A stretch of DNA of 64,000 nucleotides from a virus (taxonomy: Duplodnaviria > Heunggongvirae > Uroviricota > Caudoviricetes), in the IMG/VR virus record IMGVR_UViG_3300016667_000484, positions 64,001 to 128,000 of that record. One strand, written 5' to 3'. Shown here piece by piece: positions 3,604 through 16,287 of the stretch (position 1 is the stretch's first letter; each line of letters opens with the position of its first letter). The notes below the pieces were generated by a model that was not told the DNA's origin, ran no database searches, and saw only the letters and a list, made by a program, of their open reading frames with translations. The translations under genes were made by a program, and so were the position numbers.

Positions 3604-3974
3604 ATTTTTCTAAGCTCTTGTACTATGCGTGGATCTAACCCAACGTCTGATGTATAAAGGGTTCCGCCTTCATATTGAACAGTCTCAGGCAGGTAATTTA
3701 GAAATAAGACGAATGGCTTCAGCATCGTGTGGTATTCCTTAAGCTTAAAGAACAACATGTTTGTTGCTTCAGTGCCAAAACAGTTGTATAGTACAATCAC
3801 ATGATTCAGGATTAGTCTTACTTTTAGATCATCTGCTTCTTCATAACGCTTGAATAATCTCTTGAGATATTGGAACCGCTTGAGGTCTTCATAGAATTCT
3901 TCAGCACCAGATGACTTCTTAACATCGTAGCACTTCGCTGCATATAACATAAAGTTGGATTCGTTCAAAATCAT
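3600..3974 (-). CDS. Conserved T4-like hypothetical protein
   Basis: FYEDLKRFQYLKRLF...RLILNHVIVLYNCFG pattern recalled from T4-like cyanophages. Confidence 0.65.
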   Translation of the reverse strand: MILNESNFMLYAAKCYDVKKSSGAEEFYEDLKRFQYLKRLFKRYEEADDLKVRLILNHVIVLYNCFGTEATNMLFFKLKEYHTMLKPFVLFLNYLPETVQYEGGTLYTSDVGLDPRIVQELRKI

Positions 3975-3992
3975 TCGTCACTCTCTCAAGGG

Positions 3993-4018
3993 AAAGAGGG
4001 GAATTTCTTCCCCTCTTT
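3993..4018 (-). terminator. Stem-loop, probable terminator
   Basis: 11-bp stem AAAGAGGGGAA/TTCCCCTCTTT between genes. Confidence 0.5.
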
Positions 4019-4032
4019 GCATTACTACTGAA

Positions 4033-4392
4033 TTAGCTATCAGCGACTGTTGAGTCTTCAATAGCGGTATTGCCACTGACACCTGCGTCACCTGCGGCTG
4101 CAGCAGAGACCTTCATTGGGATCAGTGTCTCTACACGACGACGAGTGTTTCCATTCGCGTCGGTGTAGGTTGTGAACAGATTCCAACCTGCGGTCTTAAG
4201 ACCAGCTGCGCGGTTTGAAGTGACAGCGGCTTCAGTCGTGTCGACGAAGAATGCGTTGTTCAGGTCAACTTGGTCTGGAAGACCACCATAATCACGTGCA
4301 GTGTTTGCCGCTGGGGCGATCGAAGTATTTGCTCCATCGAGTAGATACTTTGGTGCCGATGCTCGAGCGTCAGTTTTTCCCCATAGTGCCAT
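4033..4392 (-). CDS. Hypothetical (likely virion) protein
   Basis: MALWGK N-terminus, Ala/Thr/Gly-rich, good RBS. Confidence 0.55.
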   Translation of the reverse strand: MALWGKTDARASAPKYLLDGANTSIAPAANTARDYGGLPDQVDLNNAFFVDTTEAAVTSNRAAGLKTAGWNLFTTYTDANGNTRRRVETLIPMKVSAAAAGDAGVSGNTAIEDSTVADS

Positions 4393-4424
4393 GTTAGTTC
4401 TCCTTATGAATGGGATATTAGTAT

Positions 4425-5609
4425 TTATTTGTTGTTGGTTTTCTCATCATGATGTGCTTTAGCAGCTTCCATCGAATCGAATTCCTTGAAGTACTTTCGA
4501 TCAGGAGTGTGCACTGCGTAGGTTGCCTTCTTTGGCCACTTGTTGTAGATCTTAGTGATGCGAAGATCTGAAGCTTCGTTGATCTCGACTTCTTCCTTAA
4601 CAGCAGCTTTCTTTGCTGCTGCTTTAGCTTCTGCTGCTTCACGCTTTTTACGATCGGCATCCGCAATCTTATTCAACTGCTTTTCCTTCTTCATAGCAGC
4701 TTTCCAATATGTGTCACGCCAATCCTCTTGAACAACTTCTTCGCCAAAGCGCTTCTTGCCGTGTACTTCTTGAGAAACCTTGTTCACAATATCACGACGG
4801 TTGTCAAGCTTCTCACGGTACTTAACAGACTCTGGACTATTTACGGCGCTCTTCTTAGGACGTCCAGTCTTAGTGTACTTTGAAGGATCACGTGGTCTCT
4901 CGTATTTACCACGACTGGTGAAACGATCAACGACGTCTTGACCACCCTTTTCAACATAGCGCTTCTTCAGTTCAGTTGAGATTTCGTCGATCTGTTCGAC
5001 TTCTTCACGAGCCATGACCTTAGCCTTTGCTTTGTCGGCAGGATAAGTACCAAGCTTCTTGTTCGCGACTGAGATGCCCTGATTGCGATTGCCTACACGA
5101 CGAGCAGCATCATCACGCTCTTTCTTGTCCATTGCCATACCGCCATAGGTTCTAATATTTTTCTCAGCAGTGGTGCGGTCCTTCATAGCAGCCTTTTTGT
5201 CTGCACGGGACTTGTCAATGTAGTTACGAAGAGTTGATGCCGAGACTTCATCGAGTTCGATCTCTTCTTTCACTTCAATCTTGTGTGGATACTTACCTGC
5301 GTGCTTAACTGCCCATGCCTTCGCAGCATCAACAGTTTTGTGCGTGCCGTGATGATAAGAGTGGTCCCAAACGTTGTTTCCTACATCTTGCGAAACACCA
5401 TACTCACCATTTTTGCGCTTAGACACGATGTAGTGATTTGGTTTTTCTTCGTTGAGTCGACGTGCTTGTTCTGCTTCTGCAAGGCGAACGAAGTTCTTAG
5501 CACGAACGTGGGCTGATTCGTTCAATCCTACTGCGCCGTTACGCTGACGACGATAGAAAGCGATCGCCTCGGCAAGTTGCTGATTTGTGTATTGTGAAAA
5601 GTCTGTCAT
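4425..5609 (-). CDS. Modular putative internal head protein
   Basis: Basic modules separated by EEIELDEVS, EEVEQIDEIS, EEVEINEAS spacers. Confidence 0.6.
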   Translation of the reverse strand: MTDFSQYTNQQLAEAIAFYRRQRNGAVGLNESAHVRAKNFVRLAEAEQARRLNEEKPNHYIVSKRKNGEYGVSQDVGNNVWDHSYHHGTHKTVDAAKAWAVKHAGKYPHKIEVKEEIELDEVSASTLRNYIDKSRADKKAAMKDRTTAEKNIRTYGGMAMDKKERDDAARRVGNRNQGISVANKKLGTYPADKAKAKVMAREEVEQIDEISTELKKRYVEKGGQDVVDRFTSRGKYERPRDPSKYTKTGRPKKSAVNSPESVKYREKLDNRRDIVNKVSQEVHGKKRFGEEVVQEDWRDTYWKAAMKKEKQLNKIADADRKKREAAEAKAAAKKAAVKEEVEINEASDLRITKIYNKWPKKATYAVHTPDRKYFKEFDSMEAAKAHHDEKTNNK

Positions 5610-5618
5610 GATTTCCTC

Positions 5619-6284
5619 TTATTCTTCTTCTGAGTTAAAATCTTCTTCGTCGGCCATCTCTGACTCCATGTAGTCAGCAGCGCCAGTGATATAGTCGGTT
5701 GCTAGAACGATGTCTGCTACGATGTGCCCTGGAAGTTCATCGTCATCATCGAGAAGAGTGTGTAGTCTCTTCGCGGCCGCGATCATCATTCTTAGCTGGG
5801 ACTTAGCCATACCACCTTCTTGGCCATATTCGCCGTCGTCTTTAGCTTCACCATACATCTGTTTATACTTTTTCGTATACTGAGACTCTCTGGTTTTTGC
5901 AGTGGCGTCACCTGGTGCTGGCTTATACGCAGAAGGATCATCCCAGCTCTTGTTAGCACCTTTCTTAAAGTGTGCTGCGCGAGCCTTGTCAGTGGAGTTG
6001 TTCCCTGTGCTGTACTTAGAAGATAGCTCGGATTCTCTCAGGTCTTTGTCAGCGGTGTGATAGGTTTTGCCCTTAGTGATATACGAGTTCACTCTCGCCA
6101 TCGCCCATTGTTGTGGAGTTGTGCCGGGACGATGACCGGTGCGCCACGCGGCCATACCTCGGTTATAAACCTTTCTCAGAGTGCCGACCGAAATACCAGA
6201 AGCTTCGGCCTTTTTGGCCAAGCCGGTTTCGGCTGCTTCACTTATGTCAGTCGCTTCAGCTATGATTTGCTTGAATGTTTTCAT
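5619..6284 (-). CDS. Putative internal head protein (DUF5824-like) with capsid-targeting-like N-terminus
   Basis: MKTFKQIIAEA start; LAKKAEASGIS...VYNRGMAAWRTGHRPG..QQWAMARVNS domain. Confidence 0.65.
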   Translation of the reverse strand: MKTFKQIIAEATDISEAAETGLAKKAEASGISVGTLRKVYNRGMAAWRTGHRPGTTPQQWAMARVNSYITKGKTYHTADKDLRESELSSKYSTGNNSTDKARAAHFKKGANKSWDDPSAYKPAPGDATAKTRESQYTKKYKQMYGEAKDDGEYGQEGGMAKSQLRMMIAAAKRLHTLLDDDDELPGHIVADIVLATDYITGAADYMESEMADEEDFNSEEE

Positions 6285-6293
6285 GGTTTCCTC

Positions 6294-9200
6294 TTAGTAC
6301 TTAACGACTGGATTCGGAGTGGAGAAGTTCTTCTTGCGCATGATGGTCTTTGCCACGATGTCGATCTCATCATTCTTCGAGTCGTACTTGACTACTACCG
6401 GCATGTTGAGGTCTGACTGTAGATCCTTGACAACCATCTCTGCACCTGGCTTGTCTTTGAGAGGATTGCCATGCTTAGCGTAGATCTTTTTGATCAAATC
6501 AGCGAGTTCCTTGAGCTTGATCTTAGGCGAGTTACGATCGTCATTCATGCGCTCACCGAAGTGCTTAGTGAACTCAAAGTCGATCTTGAACTTCTCGAAC
6601 ATGCGGTCGACAAACTTCTCGAAGTCCTTCATCTTTGATGCAGTGATCTCGGTGTCCTCTGCTTCCTCTTTGATCGTATGTTCAAATGCCAGTCCAACTC
6701 GAGTGTGCTTCTTCTCGTCGGCGTACTTTTTCAGGAACTTCTTAGTCAGATCAGGGACTGCATTGGTTTCATCTGGCACAGTCTTCTTGAAGTCATCAGC
6801 ATCGACGTCGCCATCAAGGTCGGTGTCGACATGCATCAAGGCGTCTTTACCAATGTGCTTGAATGGAACACCGATTCCGAGCTCATGCTTGAATGGCTTC
6901 TTGTCTTCGCTGACTTGAACAACACTCGTCTTATACTTGTTTGGGTGTCTCTCAAGTTCTTTAGCGAGTTGTGTTGCCTTTTCGTGAGACATCGGTGTAG
7001 CATGCTTGATGTGCTTCTTGATCAGGTGTGCTGATGGTGTAGTATGCACGTCAAGGTAATGATCTTGCTTGTAGAATGGACTTTTGCCCTTCACCACATA
7101 CTTCTTTTCTTCAAACATATCTTCGAACGCTTCGTTGATACCATCAGTGATCTTTGGCTTAGTGACTACACCCTTTTCGCCTGGAGTAGCAGCTTTATAG
7201 TTTGAGACCAACTTGTCAGTACCTTCGAATCCAGCACCATAGCTCTCGTGATAGGTGCGGAACTTCTTCATCTTCTGATCGCGAGAAGTCACCGCACGAA
7301 GATGACGCTCGATGTGAGCATCAATCTCTGCTTTCGTGTTGACGTCCTTTGGCGCAGGAGGAATCACTGGTGCAGGGATCTCAGCTTGGTGCATGCTCTT
7401 CGGAGTAGATCTTCCAAGTGCTGGACCGGGAATGACTACGGCTTCACCGAGGTGACCATGTGAAGCGATCCATGCTTTCGCAGCTGGGCTCTTTGGCGGG
7501 TTCTTCGCCCAGGTCGAGATCTTCTTGTAGGTGTTCAGAATGGCTGGTTCAACTTCTTGTCCGGCCGAGTTGTCGATGATGTACATGTTGTTGCCAAAGT
7601 ACTGCTGGAACTTGCCGATGTTGTGCTGCACTTCTGACCACATAGTCTCGACTTCGCTGTCTGGCAGAGAGCGAGTGCGCATTTTGTTACGAGTCTTAGC
7701 TGTATCGAGGCTGGTGTTAACAAAGATCATCGCTACGTCGTAGCCGATCTTCTTTAGCTTCTCAGCTTGCTTCTCGATCTTTCCAAAGTCTTTACCAGTT
7801 CCGTCGATCACGAGACCAAGGCGGCCATGAACTGCGTGGTCCATGAGCTTACCAGTCAAAGCTTTTGCTTGACCACGAATCTCTTGACCTTTTGGCGAGT
7901 AGATGTTCTCAGGTGTTGATGCCATTCCCGCTTTCGCTAGAGCACGTTCGAACGCGTCATCGGAGTTGATGACTTTCATACCAAGTGCGGTGAGTGCGGT
8001 TCTACCGACGATGAATGACTTGCCAGAACCTGGACCACCAGCAAGGAAAACTGCCTTGAAGATAGATGGATCGTGTACACCTTCGTTCAGTGCTACTTCA
8101 AACGCCTCGTTGATGTGATTCGTCACGAGAGCGTTGACGTTGTCGAATCCGGCTTGCTCTTCAGTCTTCGATTCACTCAGGTTGTACATACCTTCGATGA
8201 ACGCCTCGAACACTACTTCAAAGTCAAGGCCTGACTTCTGTGACTTCTCGATAAGAGCCATCGCGATCTTGATGTCCTCAGGCGACTCGTCAAATGCCTC
8301 TTGAATCACATTGAGGAGTTCAGTGTCAGTTTGTTCATGATGCATGATGTTGCGGAACGCACGGAAGCGACGATCAAGCTTCGCTTTGTTGTGCTTGTCG
8401 AACACCATGTGATAACGTGGCTTTGTGCCTTCTTCAAGGAAAGCTTCAAACGATTCATTGATGTGGCTATTAGGTTGACCTGGGACGTGATGACCGGTTC
8501 CACCTTGGCCACCTTTGCTCAAGAGAGCAACACGAGCGAACTCAGCTTTACGTACAGTAGGAAGGAGTCGTGCTGCGATCTTCGCGATCGATCTTTTTCT
8601 TTCCTCGACACGCTTGTCGATCATGATCTTTTCTGCTGGCGAGAGGGATGCGTACTCGAGACCCTTTTCACCTGCTACTTTTCTACGAATGATCTGAATA
8701 GCTTTCTTACGAGCACGACCCTCAAGGTGCTTTTGGTCAGCGATGCGAGTACGTAGGCGCTCGCGGGACATCTCCATCTTTTTCTCGAGACGACGAGCTG
8801 TGATAGCACGCTTCATTCTCTCAGCGACGCTAAGCACGTGTTCTTCTAGTTCTACTTCTTCTGCCAATTTCATACCACCTCTAACTAGGCTATACACTTC
8901 GTCTGCGTGCTTCTGTAGGTTCTTTGGAAGACCGGTTTTGAATTTTGCTGAGTCACCTTTCGATGCGGCTTCTCTCATCTTTGACGCTGACATACCTTCA
9001 ACGCCTTCGGCATCAGGATCTCTCTCACCAGCAGAAACGACTTCGATCGACTTGAAGTTGAACTCCTTGCCGTTATACTTCTTTAGTAGTGTATCGAATT
9101 CTTGTACACGATCAGCACCGGCGACAAACACCACGTTATCGAAGTGACCGGTCAGAGACTTCATCACGTCGATTAGGGTTTTTGCTGGTGCTTTTTGGAT

Positions 9201-9506
9201 GATAGAACCGAATGCTTCTTTTGCGAGCATGATCTTGTCGTCGTACGACAGAGGGTTCTTTTTTGCGTCTTGAGAGTGGCTAAGGTATACTTGAGCGACG
9301 CCATTCGCCTTCTTTGCCAGATCCTTAACCTTGTTGACTAGCTTCTCATGGCCAACTGTTGGAGGGTTCATTCTTCCAAAAGAAACTACTGCGGTTTTAG
9401 CGTTCGCTTCTTTCAGTTCAGGATTCAGAATGATGTTGCTATTTTGACCACCGACGTTCTTATCATCAGGCGTCTTCTTTGCTTTCTTTGGCTCTACTGC
9501 CATCAT
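6294..9506 (-). CDS. Multidomain protein: HIGH-type nucleotidyltransferase + helical modules + zeta-toxin-like P-loop kinase + C-terminal RelE/BECR-like domain
   Basis: FGRMNPPTVGHEKL; VFLAGGPGSGKS...VIDGTG; C-terminal FTKHFGERM; late promoter upstream. Confidence 0.75.
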   Translation of the reverse strand: MMAVEPKKAKKTPDDKNVGGQNSNIILNPELKEANAKTAVVSFGRMNPPTVGHEKLVNKVKDLAKKANGVAQVYLSHSQDAKKNPLSYDDKIMLAKEAFGSIIQKAPAKTLIDVMKSLTGHFDNVVFVAGADRVQEFDTLLKKYNGKEFNFKSIEVVSAGERDPDAEGVEGMSASKMREAASKGDSAKFKTGLPKNLQKHADEVYSLVRGGMKLAEEVELEEHVLSVAERMKRAITARRLEKKMEMSRERLRTRIADQKHLEGRARKKAIQIIRRKVAGEKGLEYASLSPAEKIMIDKRVEERKRSIAKIAARLLPTVRKAEFARVALLSKGGQGGTGHHVPGQPNSHINESFEAFLEEGTKPRYHMVFDKHNKAKLDRRFRAFRNIMHHEQTDTELLNVIQEAFDESPEDIKIAMALIEKSQKSGLDFEVVFEAFIEGMYNLSESKTEEQAGFDNVNALVTNHINEAFEVALNEGVHDPSIFKAVFLAGGPGSGKSFIVGRTALTALGMKVINSDDAFERALAKAGMASTPENIYSPKGQEIRGQAKALTGKLMDHAVHGRLGLVIDGTGKDFGKIEKQAEKLKKIGYDVAMIFVNTSLDTAKTRNKMRTRSLPDSEVETMWSEVQHNIGKFQQYFGNNMYIIDNSAGQEVEPAILNTYKKISTWAKNPPKSPAAKAWIASHGHLGEAVVIPGPALGRSTPKSMHQAEIPAPVIPPAPKDVNTKAEIDAHIERHLRAVTSRDQKMKKFRTYHESYGAGFEGTDKLVSNYKAATPGEKGVVTKPKITDGINEAFEDMFEEKKYVVKGKSPFYKQDHYLDVHTTPSAHLIKKHIKHATPMSHEKATQLAKELERHPNKYKTSVVQVSEDKKPFKHELGIGVPFKHIGKDALMHVDTDLDGDVDADDFKKTVPDETNAVPDLTKKFLKKYADEKKHTRVGLAFEHTIKEEAEDTEITASKMKDFEKFVDRMFEKFKIDFEFTKHFGERMNDDRNSPKIKLKELADLIKKIYAKHGNPLKDKPGAEMVVKDLQSDLNMPVVVKYDSKNDEIDIVAKTIMRKKNFSTPNPVVKY

Positions 9507-9559
9507 TTTCTCCTTACATCACAGGTTTACCTAGGCCTAACTGCGGTTGGTTTTGATTC

Positions 9560-9567
9560 TATTTATA
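9560..9567 (-). promoter_or_regulatory. T4-type late promoter TATAAATA
   Basis: Exact consensus upstream of the 1070-aa gene. Confidence 0.8.
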
Positions 9568-9574
9568 GTTTGGG

Positions 9575-10252
9575 CTATCTTAAGTTGTTTCTAAATGAAT
9601 CAATGAAGTGATAGTTGACTTCTGCAGACTCAGCCCAAAGCGTAGATTTTCTTAGCCATGCGATAGCTGGAGTTGGTTCCATCATCGCGAGAGGAGTTTT
9701 ACTTCCACGTTGTCCGCGAATGAAGTACGCGTTATCAACACATCCAAGGATACCTCTAGTCTCGATCTCTTGGACCAAAGTTCTAGCGGTATGACCGGTC
9801 ATGGCATACGCATGAGCTCCTTCATGACCATCGATGTCAAACACTCTGGTCGGAGGGCCGGCGGTGACGTGATCATACCGAGTGTGATCTCTCAGCTTAT
9901 AACCTAAAACAACTATTCTATTATCTGGCACATCAATGTCAATAGGATGAAGCATCAAAGCGTCGTGTTCGAGGACGACCGCACACTCGTCTCGGTCTCC
10001 GATGAGTTTCCAGATCGCAGCGTGCCCAGCTGAACAGCACGTTGGATTATCGATCATGTGATCGTATCGAGTCAAGTCGTTTGGATACTTGATCCCCGTG
10101 GCGTCCCAAGACGCTCTTGGATTCATTGCGTGGTATCCTTCAAAGAACTCGAATGGTAAACCAACATCGCGACATGACTGCGCAGCACCTTCGGCGTATC
10201 CACGAGAAAGAGGAGTGTCGATCCTTAAGATGTATGCTTTAGTAGGTTTCAT
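9575..10252 (-). CDS. Glycosyltransferase family 25-like protein
   Basis: CCSAGHAAIWK...VVLEHDA and GAHAYAM patterns typical of GT25. Confidence 0.65.
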   Translation of the reverse strand: MKPTKAYILRIDTPLSRGYAEGAAQSCRDVGLPFEFFEGYHAMNPRASWDATGIKYPNDLTRYDHMIDNPTCCSAGHAAIWKLIGDRDECAVVLEHDALMLHPIDIDVPDNRIVVLGYKLRDHTRYDHVTAGPPTRVFDIDGHEGAHAYAMTGHTARTLVQEIETRGILGCVDNAYFIRGQRGSKTPLAMMEPTPAIAWLRKSTLWAESAEVNYHFIDSFRNNLR

Positions 10253-11983: not shown

Positions 11984-13282
11984 TTATGTGACTTCTTCCC
12001 AATCCATAGACGCAAGAACGGTGTCAGAGTTAGCTCCACCTGCAATGGCTAGTGTGAAAGTAAATGGCGTTGACGTGAAGCCGTTTCTTTCGAGTTGGTA
12101 TCTGAATGGTGCACCATCGAGAGAGATGACCGGTGCGCTTTGGTTAGACACCGTTGTGTAACCCGTGATCAAAGATGTTGCGTCTGACATAGCTGTGCCG
12201 CTGATGTTGTATTCAACACATGAATCATCACCAGCCGAAACCCATGTTCCACCAGTTATAGTAGATCCGACAACAAGTTTGTATGCGTAACGGCCTACGT
12301 TAGAGGTACCTAGGACGCTGATGTTTTTCGGTAGAACTACCGCGTCAAGACGAGTAGATTTTAGACGAATCGACATCACAGGGTAGTATGTTCCACCAGT
12401 GGTTAGCGTATATGGAGTAGTGATAGGATGTGCTGCTGTACGTTGTTTTCCACGTAGCTCATAGCCACCCTCTGAAATTACTGTAGCACATATGATTCGA
12501 AGTGTACTTGAGCTAGCGGTGGCTGATGTATTTTCAATCTCTGCTCTGACTGGCAAACAAGCCGTAGTCATATACGTATTCGTCAAGGCGTTTGAGTGGT
12601 GGAAGCTATGGCAATGAATGAACTGCCCATCGATCACAAAGCCCATTCTAACTGAACCAACACCAAGCCACTCGATGTCAATGAAAAGGATCTGAGCCTT
12701 CGTCAAGTCAAGCGTTTTGAGAGAAGGTCCTGTACCGTCAAGCTTATCTACGTTCCAGTCGGCTTTTGCTACACGAGTATCAACTACAGAACCGGTCGTA
12801 TAAGAGCGTCTTACGAAGTAAATTTCAGTTCCATCTTGCTCGAGGAACATACCGTTTTGTTCGCCAAAGAACCCATAGCGTTGTCTAAGCCCAGCTTTAG
12901 GCGCTGCCATCACAAATGTTTCGAGTATCTGAAGAGACTTACCTGGTTGATACGCGAACACTCTCGATGATTCTCTCTTTATGAAAGATCCACTAGAGGT
13001 ATCGACTGTGCAAACGATGCTACTTGAATTTATGTCATGCGACATCGTGGCGCCCGTCGCGCTGTTCGCGGAGCTGATGCGGCCGTTGTCTTGATAACGG
13101 TGGAACGAATCAAATAGCGTAAATGGTTGAGACATCCTTTGGCGACCAAACGCGTCAAGTGCTACACCAGTTGGATTCGCTCCACTGACGTTGTTGCCAT
13201 ATTGATCTGCCAACATCACCGTCTCAAACAGTGTCTTATTGTCGCCAGAAAAACGATGAGTGTTTTTGTTAAACTGTGCCAT
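11984..13282 (-). CDS. Putative virion structural protein (beta-rich)
   Basis: DAFGRQRMSQPFTLFD motif recalled from T4-like cyanophage structural proteins; S/T/G-rich. Confidence 0.55.
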   Translation of the reverse strand: MAQFNKNTHRFSGDNKTLFETVMLADQYGNNVSGANPTGVALDAFGRQRMSQPFTLFDSFHRYQDNGRISSANSATGATMSHDINSSSIVCTVDTSSGSFIKRESSRVFAYQPGKSLQILETFVMAAPKAGLRQRYGFFGEQNGMFLEQDGTEIYFVRRSYTTGSVVDTRVAKADWNVDKLDGTGPSLKTLDLTKAQILFIDIEWLGVGSVRMGFVIDGQFIHCHSFHHSNALTNTYMTTACLPVRAEIENTSATASSSTLRIICATVISEGGYELRGKQRTAAHPITTPYTLTTGGTYYPVMSIRLKSTRLDAVVLPKNISVLGTSNVGRYAYKLVVGSTITGGTWVSAGDDSCVEYNISGTAMSDATSLITGYTTVSNQSAPVISLDGAPFRYQLERNGFTSTPFTFTLAIAGGANSDTVLASMDWEEVT

Positions 13283-13290
13283 GATCTATC

Positions 13291-13665
13291 TCACCATGCA
13301 CGGCAAGACCAGTAACGTGCCCTGTCTTTTGGCTTAGGAACTGAAGGGTCGTCACAGCCATGACGTGCACGGAATGACTTACGACGGGCTGGGTTGTTCT
13401 TCTTGATCGTCATGTTTGGATCACCAAACTCGACTTTCTTCGCCTTGCCATCACCGTCTGGATCAACGTAAACCTTTGACTTCTTGACGTCACCAGACAT
13501 TGGTTTATTCAAGGGAACTTCGCGACCTTTGTAAGTCGCTTCATCAAGATCTTCGTCTTCCTTGATGCCTTTTTCGTTACGCGATGCCCAGACTGCTTTA
13601 CGCTGAGCGTCACTCTTGTATTCTTCTGTTTGAAGGAACTGTAGAAAACTCTTCATCGTTGCCAT
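13291..13665 (-). CDS. Putative internal head protein (DUF6321-like)
   Basis: MKSFLQFLQTEE N-terminus; FGDPNM..RRKSFRARHGC..ARYWSCRAW. Confidence 0.6.
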   Translation of the reverse strand: MATMKSFLQFLQTEEYKSDAQRKAVWASRNEKGIKEDEDLDEATYKGREVPLNKPMSGDVKKSKVYVDPDGDGKAKKVEFGDPNMTIKKNNPARRKSFRARHGCDDPSVPKPKDRARYWSCRAW

Positions 13666-14882
13666 CCTTTCATTACGTCGGCAGAGAAGTTTGCGTGGCT
13701 GAATTGCAGACGATCAATTAACTTCACTGCGTTCTTGCCCATGTGATCGATCGCGACGAATCCTTCTTGCTCAGTGACTTTATAGCCGTCAGTAGTCTTA
13801 AGGAACGTTCCGATCTGTTTTGCTTTGTCGAGCTTACGCACAACCATATGCTTAGCGTCAACAATCAGGTCATACATGGTAAAGATGTTCACAATTTCTG
13901 ATTTAGGTGTATTTGAGAAGTACTTCATCACCTCAGCGCGTTTGGCTTCCCATGCCTCTTTGCTCTTTGGTGTTGCCTTCTTGTCAATTTCTTTCTGATA
14001 GTAGTCGTGTACGTATTTGATCAAATCGTCAACGAATCTACTCGTGTCTCCGATGCGTTCACCAACTTTTACCTTTGAGTTGATGAAGGCTTTTACTCGA
14101 ATGAGAAGCTCTTCGTTATCGGACATACCATCGAGAGAAGATCTCTTCAGGCCAGAGAAGATCTTCCCGGCCTTTGACAAGATCTCAGTGATCTCTTTCG
14201 TCTCAGCTGCGTTGAAGTTTGCCGAACCCGAGACGTCTTTGTACATCGCGTCTACTGACCAGACCGATTTCGTTTTCTTGAGGCGGCTTGCGATCTCCTC
14301 TCCAAAACTCGCTGACATTGACTCAAGAGAGTCTCCTCGGTATGTAGTGTGCCAGACCACGCCAATTCTTGAGGCAAGGATTTCACGAGCGAGTTGACTG
14401 TTCTTCGGTACCGCGTAAACAATCGTGTTAGGATGAAAAGTAATATACGGTTCTCCGTCAATATCCACTTCTCGTAGATCTTCTCTCGAATATAGGAAGT
14501 CACCTTGAACCACTCCTGTAATGCCCAGCTTAGACAGCTCTTCAAGAGCAACCTTAAGCTTTGCGTTCAAATCACCTGATGTGTCTGCATCAATATCAGC
14601 TGGTGTCTTATACACCTTGGGATCTTTGTTGAAGATCCCCTTCTTTGCGACGAAGAACTTCCCGTCACGAGGATCGATGCCAGCGAACACAGCCGGCGCG
14701 CCGTCCCATTTGATGGTTACGTTCGAAGATTTAGTTGCGTTTCCCGCAAGCATGTCACGAAGAGAGCGAAGGAAGTTGATAGACTGACGAGCACCTTCGA
14801 CACCAGCATTGAGGATGTTGTCCTCGATGTGCTCCATGTGAGTGTTCTTAGCTTCAGTGAGGAACGTATTGAATCTGATCAT
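13653..14882 (-). CDS. DUF6267-like protein with ligase-type nucleotidyltransferase motifs
   Basis: MIRFNTFLTEAKNTHMEHIED start; TIKWDG, QGDF, EGFV, VKL motifs. Confidence 0.6.
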   Translation of the reverse strand: MIRFNTFLTEAKNTHMEHIEDNILNAGVEGARQSINFLRSLRDMLAGNATKSSNVTIKWDGAPAVFAGIDPRDGKFFVAKKGIFNKDPKVYKTPADIDADTSGDLNAKLKVALEELSKLGITGVVQGDFLYSREDLREVDIDGEPYITFHPNTIVYAVPKNSQLAREILASRIGVVWHTTYRGDSLESMSASFGEEIASRLKKTKSVWSVDAMYKDVSGSANFNAAETKEITEILSKAGKIFSGLKRSSLDGMSDNEELLIRVKAFINSKVKVGERIGDTSRFVDDLIKYVHDYYQKEIDKKATPKSKEAWEAKRAEVMKYFSNTPKSEIVNIFTMYDLIVDAKHMVVRKLDKAKQIGTFLKTTDGYKVTEQEGFVAIDHMGKNAVKLIDRLQFSHANFSADVMKGWQR

Positions 14883-15664
14883 AGCTGAACCTTAGGTTTT
14901 ATCGTACCGCTAGTCATGTGGTAGATGAAGATTTCGTTCTGCTTCACCTTCTTAACCGCTTCGATGTCGCCTTGCTTAGATGTCTTGCTGTTGTTGATGA
15001 AGATCACTTCGTGGTTTTTGAAGTATCCATCGTAAGCGATCTTAGCAAACTTTTCTTCAATCGCGTTGAACTCTGCTGGTGCTTTCTCCTTCATCGTCTG
15101 TAGTACAGTCGGTGCGATCTCGGTCGAGGTACCGGCCAGGCCAAGTCTTAGACGAAGCTGGTTGAGTTCTTTCTTTGTCTCGTCGATGGGAACAGTGCCA
15201 CCAAGCTTGAAGTCATAGGCTTGACGATCGCGACTCACCGACACTGCCTTTACTTCGTATCCAGTTGATCCGACGATCACGTCTAGACCTGCCGAAGATC
15301 CACCACCGAGCTTACAGTTGTTGATGAGAAAGTACAGCGTGACTTCACCTGGGCCAATGCCCTTTAGATTATAGCTATGGAGCTTCTTGAACATCGACAT
15401 GTCTTCTCTCTTGAGCAAAGATATGAGTCTGTTCAACGTTGTCAAGTTGACGCCATCAGTGGTTTTTGAGATGTCAAACTTAGGGAAGAAATGCATATTG
15501 AAGAGATACTGAATCTCTTTCTTATGTGTTGTTGAAGTAAATTCAGTCGCCGGAATATTGAACGAAGAAATTTTCAACGCATTGTTAATGAACTCCATGT
15601 TCAAGTCTGCCACGGTGATCTCCGATCCTGATGTTTCTTCTACAAAGACTCTAAAGCGTTTCAT
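14879..15664 (-). CDS. Putative PD-(D/E)xK-fold nuclease with capsid-targeting-like N-terminus
   Basis: MKRFRVFVEE start at 15664; GPGE...LDVIVGSTGYEVKA. Confidence 0.45.
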   Translation of the reverse strand: MKRFRVFVEETSGSEITVADLNMEFINNALKISSFNIPATEFTSTTHKKEIQYLFNMHFFPKFDISKTTDGVNLTTLNRLISLLKREDMSMFKKLHSYNLKGIGPGEVTLYFLINNCKLGGGSSAGLDVIVGSTGYEVKAVSVSRDRQAYDFKLGGTVPIDETKKELNQLRLRLGLAGTSTEIAPTVLQTMKEKAPAEFNAIEEKFAKIAYDGYFKNHEVIFINNSKTSKQGDIEAVKKVKQNEIFIYHMTSGTIKPKVQL

Positions 15665-15686: not shown

Positions 15687-15694
15687 TATTTATA
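15687..15694 (-). promoter_or_regulatory. T4-type late promoter TATAAATA
   Basis: Exact consensus upstream of the 15664 start. Confidence 0.8.
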
Positions 15695-15722
15695 AAACAA
15701 AGGAGGAGCCTCAGCTCCTCCT
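15694..15722 (-). terminator. Rho-independent terminator
   Basis: 9-bp stem AGGAGGAGC/GCTCCTCCT followed by a T-rich tract on the minus strand. Confidence 0.7.
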
Positions 15723-15983
15723 CATCTGTGATACTTCAATGGCCTGTTCACCGCTTGTGATGGGTACTGCGTTGGACTTATGCATAGTCGCAATCCCCAT
15801 GATGTAGTCGCCGGTGTATACATTAGCGGCTTTCTTAGCACCATTTCCTGCGATGCCATTCGTCAGTTTAGCGTTCTCGGTTATGCCTTCTCTGAGGTTG
15901 ACGTGTTCTACGCCTTGTAGCTTAGTCCTCTTCGTGATACCTATCGAAGCGAGCCACGCCTCGTGCCGGGCCTGTGCTTCCAT
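15711..15983 (-). CDS. Hypothetical early protein
   Basis: C-terminal GIATMHKSNAVP pattern; start uncertain. Confidence 0.5.
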   Translation of the reverse strand: MEAQARHEAWLASIGITKRTKLQGVEHVNLREGITENAKLTNGIAGNGAKKAANVYTGDYIMGIATMHKSNAVPITSGEQAIEVSQMRRS

Positions 15984-16287
15984 CACCTTTTTGTTTGATT
16001 TCTTCTTCAAGATCAGTTAGCCCATAGTCTGGAAAGTAGCCGAGAGCGACACCTGCAAAGAACATCCTTCCGCCATCAGGAATGTAGTTCATGTAAAGAT
16101 AGAAGTCAAGTTCTTCTTCAGGTGTGAGGATCATGTTCTTCTTTGGATACGGCATGAATCCGTCGAAGTCCCAAAGAACCGCTTGCTTGAGTGATATGTC
16201 GTAGTCATACATCATGTCAAGCAAGCGCTTGTAGTAGATGTCGGTGGCATCACGACTTCGTTGATATGATGCTTTAGTGTACTTCAT
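15922..16287 (-). CDS. Hypothetical early protein
   Basis: MKYTK start overlapping upstream ORF; 3' end overlaps next gene. Confidence 0.4.
   Translation of the reverse strand: MKYTKASYQRSRDATDIYYKRLLDMMYDYDISLKQAVLWDFDGFMPYPKKNMILTPEEELDFYLYMNYIPDGGRMFFAGVALGYFPDYGLTDLEEEIKQKGDGSTGPARGVARFDRYHEED

Follow-up and report, generated by a model that had tools for sequence, protein, structure and literature searches.

This report concerns a three-gene operon of an aquatic T4-like phage and, above all, its middle gene, which encodes a 409-residue protein of the Pfam family DUF6267. The window, that is, the whole stretch of DNA analysed, comprises 64,000 nucleotides (bases 64001–128000 of the 195,338-bp virus record IMGVR_UViG_3300016667_000484, rated complete by CheckV). 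We consider it probable that the 409-residue protein is a catalytically competent, very divergent covalent nucleotidyltransferase of the polynucleotide ligase type, and that it is delivered in the phage head by way of a tagged late operon. From structure prediction and residue invariance we infer the ligase chemistry (adenylylation and end joining), and from the starts of the proteins the head delivery. The genes of the operon are arranged in the following order:

14879–15664, minus strand: nuclease-like protein, 261 residues, isoelectric point (pI) 9.2, with a PD-(D/E)xK nuclease-like core
13653–14882, minus strand: DUF6267 protein, 409 residues, pI 8.8, with a predicted divergent ligase-type covalent nucleotidyltransferase fold
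13291–13656, minus strand: small basic protein, 121 residues, pI 9.5, phrog_7595, starting MKSFLQFLQTE

The nuclease-like reading frame ends at 14879, where its stop codon and the start codon of the DUF6267 gene overlap as ATGA. A second ATGA overlap places the ATG of the 121-residue gene on the DUF6267 stop codon (an alternative ATG lies at 13665), and the operon is likely to be translationally coupled. The coordinates and the overlap between the first two genes had been given in a preliminary description of this DNA, whose end coordinate also implies the start of the nuclease-like gene at 15664, and they proved correct.

The 409-residue protein matches DUF6267 (PF19782) with an E value of 4e-111 and a score of 372 bits (cutoff 27). 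The match extends over residues 13–401 and profile positions 1–374 of 376, so the protein is a full-length member of what the preliminary description could only call a DUF6267-like family. It also belongs to phrog_455. The family is widespread (at least 8000 matches at E ≤ 1e-5 and at least 2667 clusters at 50% identity) and is core in all 16 cyanophages of Sullivan et al. 2010, and it carries no assigned function. Literature searches under the terms “DUF6267” and “cytitidyltransferase” returned no paper.

An alignment of 110 representatives, which are 36–53% identical to the query, has a mean column identity of 35%. Its invariant columns are H18, K58, D60, G61, G68, K81, D128, N152, Y156, G174, H178, K344, E373, G374, K387, F394 and N398, while F149 and R391 are conserved in at least 90% of the sequences. 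K58-x-D60-G61, D128, E373-G374 and K387 follow one another as motifs I, III, IV and V do in ligases, and they lie in the corresponding strand contexts. The KxDG, GD-F, EG-F-V and terminal lysine motifs, from which the possibility of a ligase had originally been raised, did not arise by chance in this one protein: they fall on invariant columns of the alignment. A residue-level check of the window placed them in TIKWDG (K58/D60/G61), VVQGDF (D128), EQEGFV (E373/G374) and AVKLIDR (K387/R391). The aromatic position of motif IIIa is occupied by F149 and is accompanied by the invariant N152 and Y156. An invariant histidine-rich segment, HxxH(E/D), lies at the predicted mature N-terminus, where the domain starts. 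The catalytic-type elements and the insert that separates them are located as follows:

14700–14711, minus strand: motif I, K58-W-D60-G61, invariant in all 110 sequences, with K58 as the predicted nucleotidylated lysine
14499–14501, minus strand: D128, the acidic residue of motif III, on the strand VVQGDFLY, invariant in all 110 sequences
13827–14210, minus strand: helical insert of about 130 residues (225–352), between the motif IIIa region and motif IV
13710–13766, minus strand: motif IV (E373-G374) and motif V (K387, with R391) in EQEGFVAIDHMGKNAVKLIDR; E373, G374 and K387 are invariant

Known ligases have nothing that corresponds to the helical insert, which carries the invariant K344.

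The AlphaFold2 model built on this alignment is of high confidence, with a predicted local distance difference test (pLDDT) value of 93.9 and a predicted template modelling score of 0.90. Only residues 1–9 are disordered (pLDDT < 50), and motif I is placed between two strands. When the model was compared with solved structures, RNA ligases were the best matches and ranked above DNA ligases. The leading matches are given here with the two values reported for each:

NgrRnl (5cot): 8.3; 189
REL1 (1xdn): 8.3; 195
Trl1 ligase domain (6n0t): 8.0; 201
T4 Rnl2 (1s68 / 2hvq): 7.7 / 7.5; 179 / 178
Trl1-LIG-KIN (9r3w): 7.4; 208
MthRnl (5d1o): 6.8; 194
T4 Rnl1 (9do4): 6.5; 157
DNA ligases: 5.5–6.3; 144–195

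Short helical matches scattered through the same search fall on the insert at residues 225–352 and represent helical-bundle noise. In a Foldseek search of predicted viral structures (BFVD), DUF6267 relatives came first and were followed by an Agrobacterium phage RNA ligase (E 6e-4), with more RNA ligases, kinase-ligases and mRNA-capping enzymes among the weaker matches. Foldseek against the PDB placed DNA ligases and Rnl1 on top with weak, non-significant scores. The structure prediction that the preliminary description had proposed as a check thus leaves the ligase reading standing.

The fold comparison also bears on the thought that the likeness to ligases is superficial and that DUF6267 is a structural or scaffolding protein of the head interior. 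The protein is basic, like the internal proteins of T4, and sequence searches give it no connection to ligases. Nevertheless, the strictly invariant positions of a family with so low a mean identity fall on catalytic-type residues, ligases head two independent structure searches, and many orthologues are untagged and are not found in virions. A purely structural role is therefore regarded as very improbable. Structure prediction together with residue invariance gives good support to a nucleotidyltransferase fold of the ligase type in DUF6267, with a catalytic set that is complete or nearly so.

Several observations weigh against the proposal of a head-delivered ligase. Searches of the PDB (phmmer and hmmsearch) with the protein and with profiles of the whole protein and of its N-terminal half gave chance matches only. 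The alignment of the DUF6267 profile by hhalign with ligase profiles, built from 19 and 22 viral homologues of the phage's own Rnl1-like and Rnl2/5-like proteins, reached P values of only 0.007–0.03, which is not significant, and hidden Markov models of these two families matched no DUF6267 sequence. The motif III residue is an aspartate rather than the usual glutamate, and motif V reads K-L-I-D-R, so that the second lysine of K-x-K is not present. DUF6267 carries no detection flag in the virion proteomes of S-SM1, S-PM2 and Syn9, although the two orthologues that were read (S-SM1 and P-HM1) are untagged. Finally, the same phage already encodes Rnl1-like, Rnl2/5-like and gp30-like ligases, so a fourth ligase-type gene needs a special role.

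The register of the non-significant hhalign alignments nonetheless set K58 on the motif I lysine and QGD on the QGE of the Rnl2/5-like profile, and it set the EG...K of DUF6267 on the EG...K-x-K of the Rnl1-like profile. Against the single Rnl1-like and Rnl2/5-like proteins of the phage, the DUF6267 profile gave nothing. The window protein matched none of the Pfam profiles PF09511 (Rnl1), PF09414 (Rnl2-type) and PF01068 (DNA ligase); PF09511 was touched below threshold by 5 of the 110 relatives (best E 6e-4). A language-model search of the ESM Atlas returned nothing named. By these sequence comparisons, DUF6267 is a family of its own, separate from the RNA and DNA ligase families of Pfam.

Since the superfamily also includes capping enzymes, a nucleotidyltransferase that does not ligate has to be weighed. 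Such an enzyme could cap RNA 5' ends, or it could use a protein or a small molecule as a target for AMPylation; its partner would be the HIGH-motif (NMNAT-like) adenylyltransferase that is always found next to it. The missing second lysine of motif V and the weak BFVD matches to mRNA-capping enzymes fit this idea, as does the fact that CTP_transf_like proteins adjoin or are fused with DUF6267 across cyanophages. It is nevertheless improbable: no capping enzyme appears among the top 50 solved-structure matches, a lysine and an arginine are present around motif V, and the remaining ligase motifs are intact.

If the protein is a ligase, Lys58 of K-W-D-G would attack a nucleotide donor (ATP is the likeliest), giving a lysyl-nucleoside monophosphate (NMP). 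The NMP would then be handed to a 5'-phosphate end, and a 3'-OH would close the break, with D128, E373 and K387 acting as motifs III, IV and V. A nick in a duplex nucleic acid, RNA or DNA, would be the likeliest class of substrate, as for Rnl5, REL1 and Rnl2. The nearest known enzymes are the nick-sealing ATP-dependent RNA ligases NgrRnl of Naegleria (Rnl5, 5cot), REL1 of T. brucei (1xdn) and T4 Rnl2 (1s68/2hvq). In contrast to these, DUF6267, whose activity is predicted, has no detectable sequence similarity to them, inserts its bundle of about 130 residues before motif IV, uses an aspartate in motif III and K-x-x-D-R in motif V, and adds the invariant HxxH(E/D) and a putative capsid-targeting propeptide.

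A different role is suggested by the distribution of the family. Sullivan et al. 2010 (PMC3037559) tabulated 26 genomes, and in their table T4-GC71, which corresponds to DUF6267, occurs in 16/16 cyanophages and 0/10 other T4-like phages, and the gp30 DNA ligase (GC1627) and RnlA (GC1653) show exactly the reverse distribution. DUF6267 might therefore be primarily a DNA ligase that replaces gp30 non-orthologously in cyanomyoviruses, where Okazaki fragments and nicks from repair would be its substrates; in the present phage, the tagged copy in the head would seal nicks of the incoming genome. The DUF6267 gene adjoins the gp43-uvsX-gp41 replication block both in P-HM1 and in the window, where gp43 polymerase, UvsX and the gp41-type helicase sit just upstream of the operon, and DNA ligases are among its structural matches. 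On the other side, the fold search ranks RNA ligases above DNA ligases, an oligonucleotide/oligosaccharide-binding (OB) domain is not present in the protein, and a late, tagged gene is a poor fit for an enzyme of the replication fork. The genome also keeps a gp30-type ligase (PF01068, E 4e-18), so the complementarity is not absolute. The complementary distribution makes a DNA-ligase role a serious alternative for the family, even though we rate it as rather unlikely. The ligase-type assignment may explain how cyanomyoviruses, which have neither gp30 DNA ligase nor RnlA, seal nucleic acid.

Scans of the genome with ligase profiles recovered three other genes and not the DUF6267 gene:

about 3767–4912, 6836–7960 and 9074–9628, same genome but outside the window: the three canonical ligase genes

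They lie within 6 kb and encode an Rnl2/5-like ligase (381 residues, with an extra N-terminal domain), an Rnl1-like ligase (374 residues) and the gp30-type DNA ligase.

The proposed delivery of the DUF6267 protein in the head is drawn from the starts of the operon's proteins. In T4, the first ten residues of the internal proteins suffice for packaging; residues 4 and 7 mainly govern targeting, and residues 8 and 10 govern processing (review of work by the Black laboratory, PMC9026906). The T4 proteins ipII and ipIII start with MKTYQEFIAE (Y4, F7, I8 and E10 at the tag positions) and ipI with MKTFKEF, as read from NC_000866. Comparable segments are found here:

15635–15664, minus strand: MKRFRVFVEE, putative propeptide of the nuclease-like protein (F4, F7, V8, E10)
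14853–14882, minus strand: MIRFNTFLTE, putative propeptide of the DUF6267 protein (F4, F7, L8, E10), with predicted cleavage after E10

The 121-residue protein has F4, F7, an aliphatic residue at position 8 and Glu at position 11. The Pfam domain of DUF6267 begins at residue 13, after the tag, and in the model of the nuclease-like protein residues 1–3 and 11–13 have pLDDT values below 50. Genome-wide, the strict tag pattern is found only in the three adjacent operon genes among 1675 candidate Met positions, where 0.18 would be expected by chance. A looser pattern adds one protein in the window and one outside it. The first is a 221-residue DUF5824 protein (5619–6284, minus strand, E 5e-24) that starts MKTFKQIIAEA, and the second is a 335-residue open reading frame on the minus strand (start at 172931) that begins MQSFKHFFVEQ.

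The tag is present in 51 of the 110 DUF6267 representatives, and others start directly at the conserved core. Variants of the tag that are shorter by one residue, such as MRFIEFISE, also occur. Among cultured relatives, Stenotrophomonas phage DLP_6 (gene AAY80_066), phage C48C1 and Methylophilales phage Melnitz bear the tag; in DLP_6 and C48C1 its Glu stands one residue later than in the proteins of the window. Among 70 homologues of the nuclease-like protein, 26 carry the tag and 33 have no such extension, so the tag behaves as an add-on. Cyanophage S-SM1 provides an informative comparison. Its cytidylyltransferase T4-GC190 (NC_015282, 148256–149419) begins MKKFSAFLNE and was detected by proteomics as a virion protein, and the adjacent DUF6267 protein (T4-GC71) has no proteomic flag (both from PMC3037559, supplementary file 3). 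The DUF6267 proteins of S-SM1 (SSM1_189) and P-HM1 (PHM1_161), the two cyanophage orthologues that were read, are both untagged. The contrast within S-SM1, in which the tagged protein is detected and the untagged one is not, speaks for the tag as a functional signal for packaging in these phages. It thereby predicts that the tagged proteins of the window are head cargo, which is plausible.

Parts of such a route are found in the phage itself. Its genes include those for a gp23 major capsid protein (PF07068, E 2e-147) and for a prohead protease of the gp21 type (Peptidase_S77, PF03420, E 1.5e-34), and the start of the operon has the arrangement of a late transcription unit:

15694–15723, minus strand: GC-rich, terminator-like hairpin with a T run after it, as read from the sequence itself
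15687–15694, minus strand: TATAAATA, a late promoter box of the T4 type, 23 nt upstream of the ATG at 15664

The hairpin closes the upstream gene (15711–16010), whose stop codon lies in the loop, and a Shine-Dalgarno-like AAGAGGA lies between the box and the ATG. The window contains 17 copies of the box, a 19-fold enrichment over the 0.9 that shuffled sequence predicts, and 16 of the 17 copies are on the coding strand; it therefore behaves as the T4-type late promoter of the phage. Judged by this motif, the operon is probably expressed late. A TTG at 15700 was rejected as the start of the nuclease-like gene because both the hairpin and the box would fall inside the extension and because homologues begin at the Met of the ATG at 15664.

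The capsid-targeting-like starts pointed out in the preliminary description match MKTYQEFIAE, and the idea of capsid targeting is strengthened by the protease, the late promoter and the S-SM1 comparison. As in the gp21-trimmed cargo of T4 (IPI, IPII, IPIII and Alt), a ten-residue peptide (positions 4 and 7 aromatic, position 8 aliphatic, position 10 Glu) precedes basic proteins of predicted late expression in a genome with a gp21-type protease. Unlike the T4 internal proteins, the putative cargo consists of predicted nucleic-acid enzymes rather than small inhibitor proteins. Since the nuclease-like and the DUF6267 proteins each start with a T4-type ten-residue tag, both are probably injected with the DNA. 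The prohead core would take up the three tagged late proteins, the gp21-type protease would trim them after Glu10 or Glu11, and ejection of the DNA would carry them into the next host. There, they would act before any phage gene is expressed, alongside cargo from a polyprotein encoded at 6294–9506.

The full form of the proposal goes further. It holds that the protein is a working ligase, carried in the capsid and injected, that seals either the incoming genome or host or phage RNA, and that the same family is the missing ligase of the cyanomyoviruses. We consider this combination less likely than not. If true, it would be the first virion-delivered ligase.

The 261-residue partner has about 360 homologues. 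In the alignment of 70 of them, E107 (in GPGE), D128 and E137-V-K139 are invariant:

15344–15346, minus strand: E107, the upstream Glu of the PD-(D/E)xK pattern, invariant
15248–15283, minus strand: catalytic-type motif D128 ... E137-V-K139, invariant in 70 sequences

At the level of sequence, E107, D128 and E137-x-K139 form the classical PD-(D/E)xK pattern. The D...EVK pattern, which had been read as that of a nuclease from the single gene, is upheld by this invariance, and its support from the fold is weak. Neither Pfam nor PHROG has a family for the protein, Pfam finds nothing in any of the 70 members, and a sequence search of the PDB gave chance matches only. The only long structural matches of the model are weak ones, to type II restriction enzymes; Foldseek against the PDB gave nothing significant, and in the ESM Atlas restriction-enzyme leads appear at 0.82 only. 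The nearest known proteins are the monomeric type II restriction endonucleases MspI, HinP1I, ThaI and DpnI, at weak scores. In contrast to them, the 261-residue protein has no membership in a sequence family and no adjacent methyltransferase, and it is predicted to be a late protein targeted to the virion. The DNA of the phage itself is probably modified with hydroxymethylcytosine.

The partnership with DUF6267 is recurrent. Among 80 viral loci with nuclease homologues 40–75% identical to the query, a same-strand DUF6267 gene lies downstream in 69, abutting in 47 of these; in 5 of the 11 exceptions, the sequence simply ends. The loci are related by descent, so the gene pair is a stable module and does not represent independent events. 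Complex prediction for the two proteins gave a score of 0.00, which carries no verdict on binding either way. At some loci, one gene stands between the two, encoding either a homologue of phrog_1645 or a HAD-type phosphatase-like protein of about 200 residues with FDIDETLFHT (DxDxT) and its own tag-like start, MKKFSEYLKEE. The HAD-type gene is found at L107:4761-5366 and L093:4807-5427 (IMG/VR contigs) and at L082:5745-6350, and one homologue reaches PF03767 (E 3e-6).

The kinase or phosphatase neighbours of DUF6267 recall T4 Pnk/Rnl1 and Trl1. The preliminary description had suggested an injected module that cuts, heals and seals nucleic acid. As an RNA repair kit, the nuclease, the kinase (with a phosphatase in relatives) and DUF6267 would mend tRNA or mRNA cut by the host, in the manner of T4 Pnk and Rnl1 against PrrC but preloaded in the virion, with host anticodon nucleases as the cutters. 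The kinase in question belongs to the polyprotein at 6294–9506, a kinase/adenylyltransferase polyprotein with an AAA_33/zeta-type P-loop kinase and a weak match to a polynucleotide-kinase PHROG. The same type of kinase is fused to DUF6267 in P0245 and P0400, the nearest folds are RNA ligases, including the ligase-kinase tRNA ligase Trl1, and the tagged DxDxT phosphatase-like gene lies between nuclease and DUF6267 in relatives. Compared with Trl1 of fungi and plants (ligase-kinase-CPDase; 6n0t, 9r3w) and with T4 Pnk and Rnl1, however, the window has an AAA_33/zeta-type kinase that belongs to a separate polyprotein at a distance of 4 kb, a 2H phosphoesterase is not present, and the fusion partners of DUF6267 also include unrelated enzymes. 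Furthermore, the partner resembles a DNA restriction-type enzyme rather than an RNase, and canonical Rnl1 and Rnl2/5-like genes are already present for RNA repair. An RNA repair kit of this kind is thus unlikely. What stands of the original suggestion is the ligase fold, the nuclease motif and the tags, and what is weakened is the argument for a shared pathway.

This weakening comes from the fusions of DUF6267. In longer relatives, it forms one module of a polyprotein, and its partners are the zeta/AAA_33 kinase, CTP_transf_like, DUF5824, an ADP-ribosyltransferase domain and a Cu/Zn superoxide dismutase. Since DUF6267 is fused to such unrelated cargo, the kinase fusion may reflect shared packaging and not a shared pathway. 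In the fused relatives, the domain begins with a conserved KNxHxEH, and a few residues ahead of it stands a hydrophobic-x-Glu site. The fusion with the ADP-ribosyltransferase exoenzyme domain (PF03496) is seen in P0410 and P0413 (726 and 725 residues) and recalls the packaged T4 protein Alt, and the fusion with the superoxide dismutase is represented by a 65-member ESM Atlas cluster. The modules of these fusions are joined by tag-like linkers, which suggests head-cargo polyproteins. The tag analysis suggests that the T4 capsid-targeting system delivers whole enzyme kits across aquatic T4-like phages, which, here or in relatives, would comprise ligase-like, nuclease-like, kinase, adenylyltransferase and ADP-ribosyltransferase domains. 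If so, they would add to early host takeover and counter-defence a layer that is largely unexplored.

The surroundings of the operon add some minor observations. By region, the closest isolates are Kyanoviridae phage C48C1, Stenotrophomonas phage DLP_6 and the Methylophilales Melnitz phages. The C-terminal motif of the 121-residue protein, R-A-R-Y-W-S-C-R-A-W, recurs in P0243 as an N-terminal module before DUF6267, and an I-L-E site separates this ARYWSC-type module from the DUF6267 domain. Next to the operon, at 11984–13282 on the minus strand, lies a gene for a 432-residue protein of phrog_1645 (“virion structural protein”, E 7e-135). It is mobile within the module, and its homologues lie between the nuclease and DUF6267 genes in loci L127 and L131. 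In DLP_6, a 433-residue gene at the corresponding position of the cluster, matched by position alone, is annotated as “exodeoxyribonuclease VII large subunit”.

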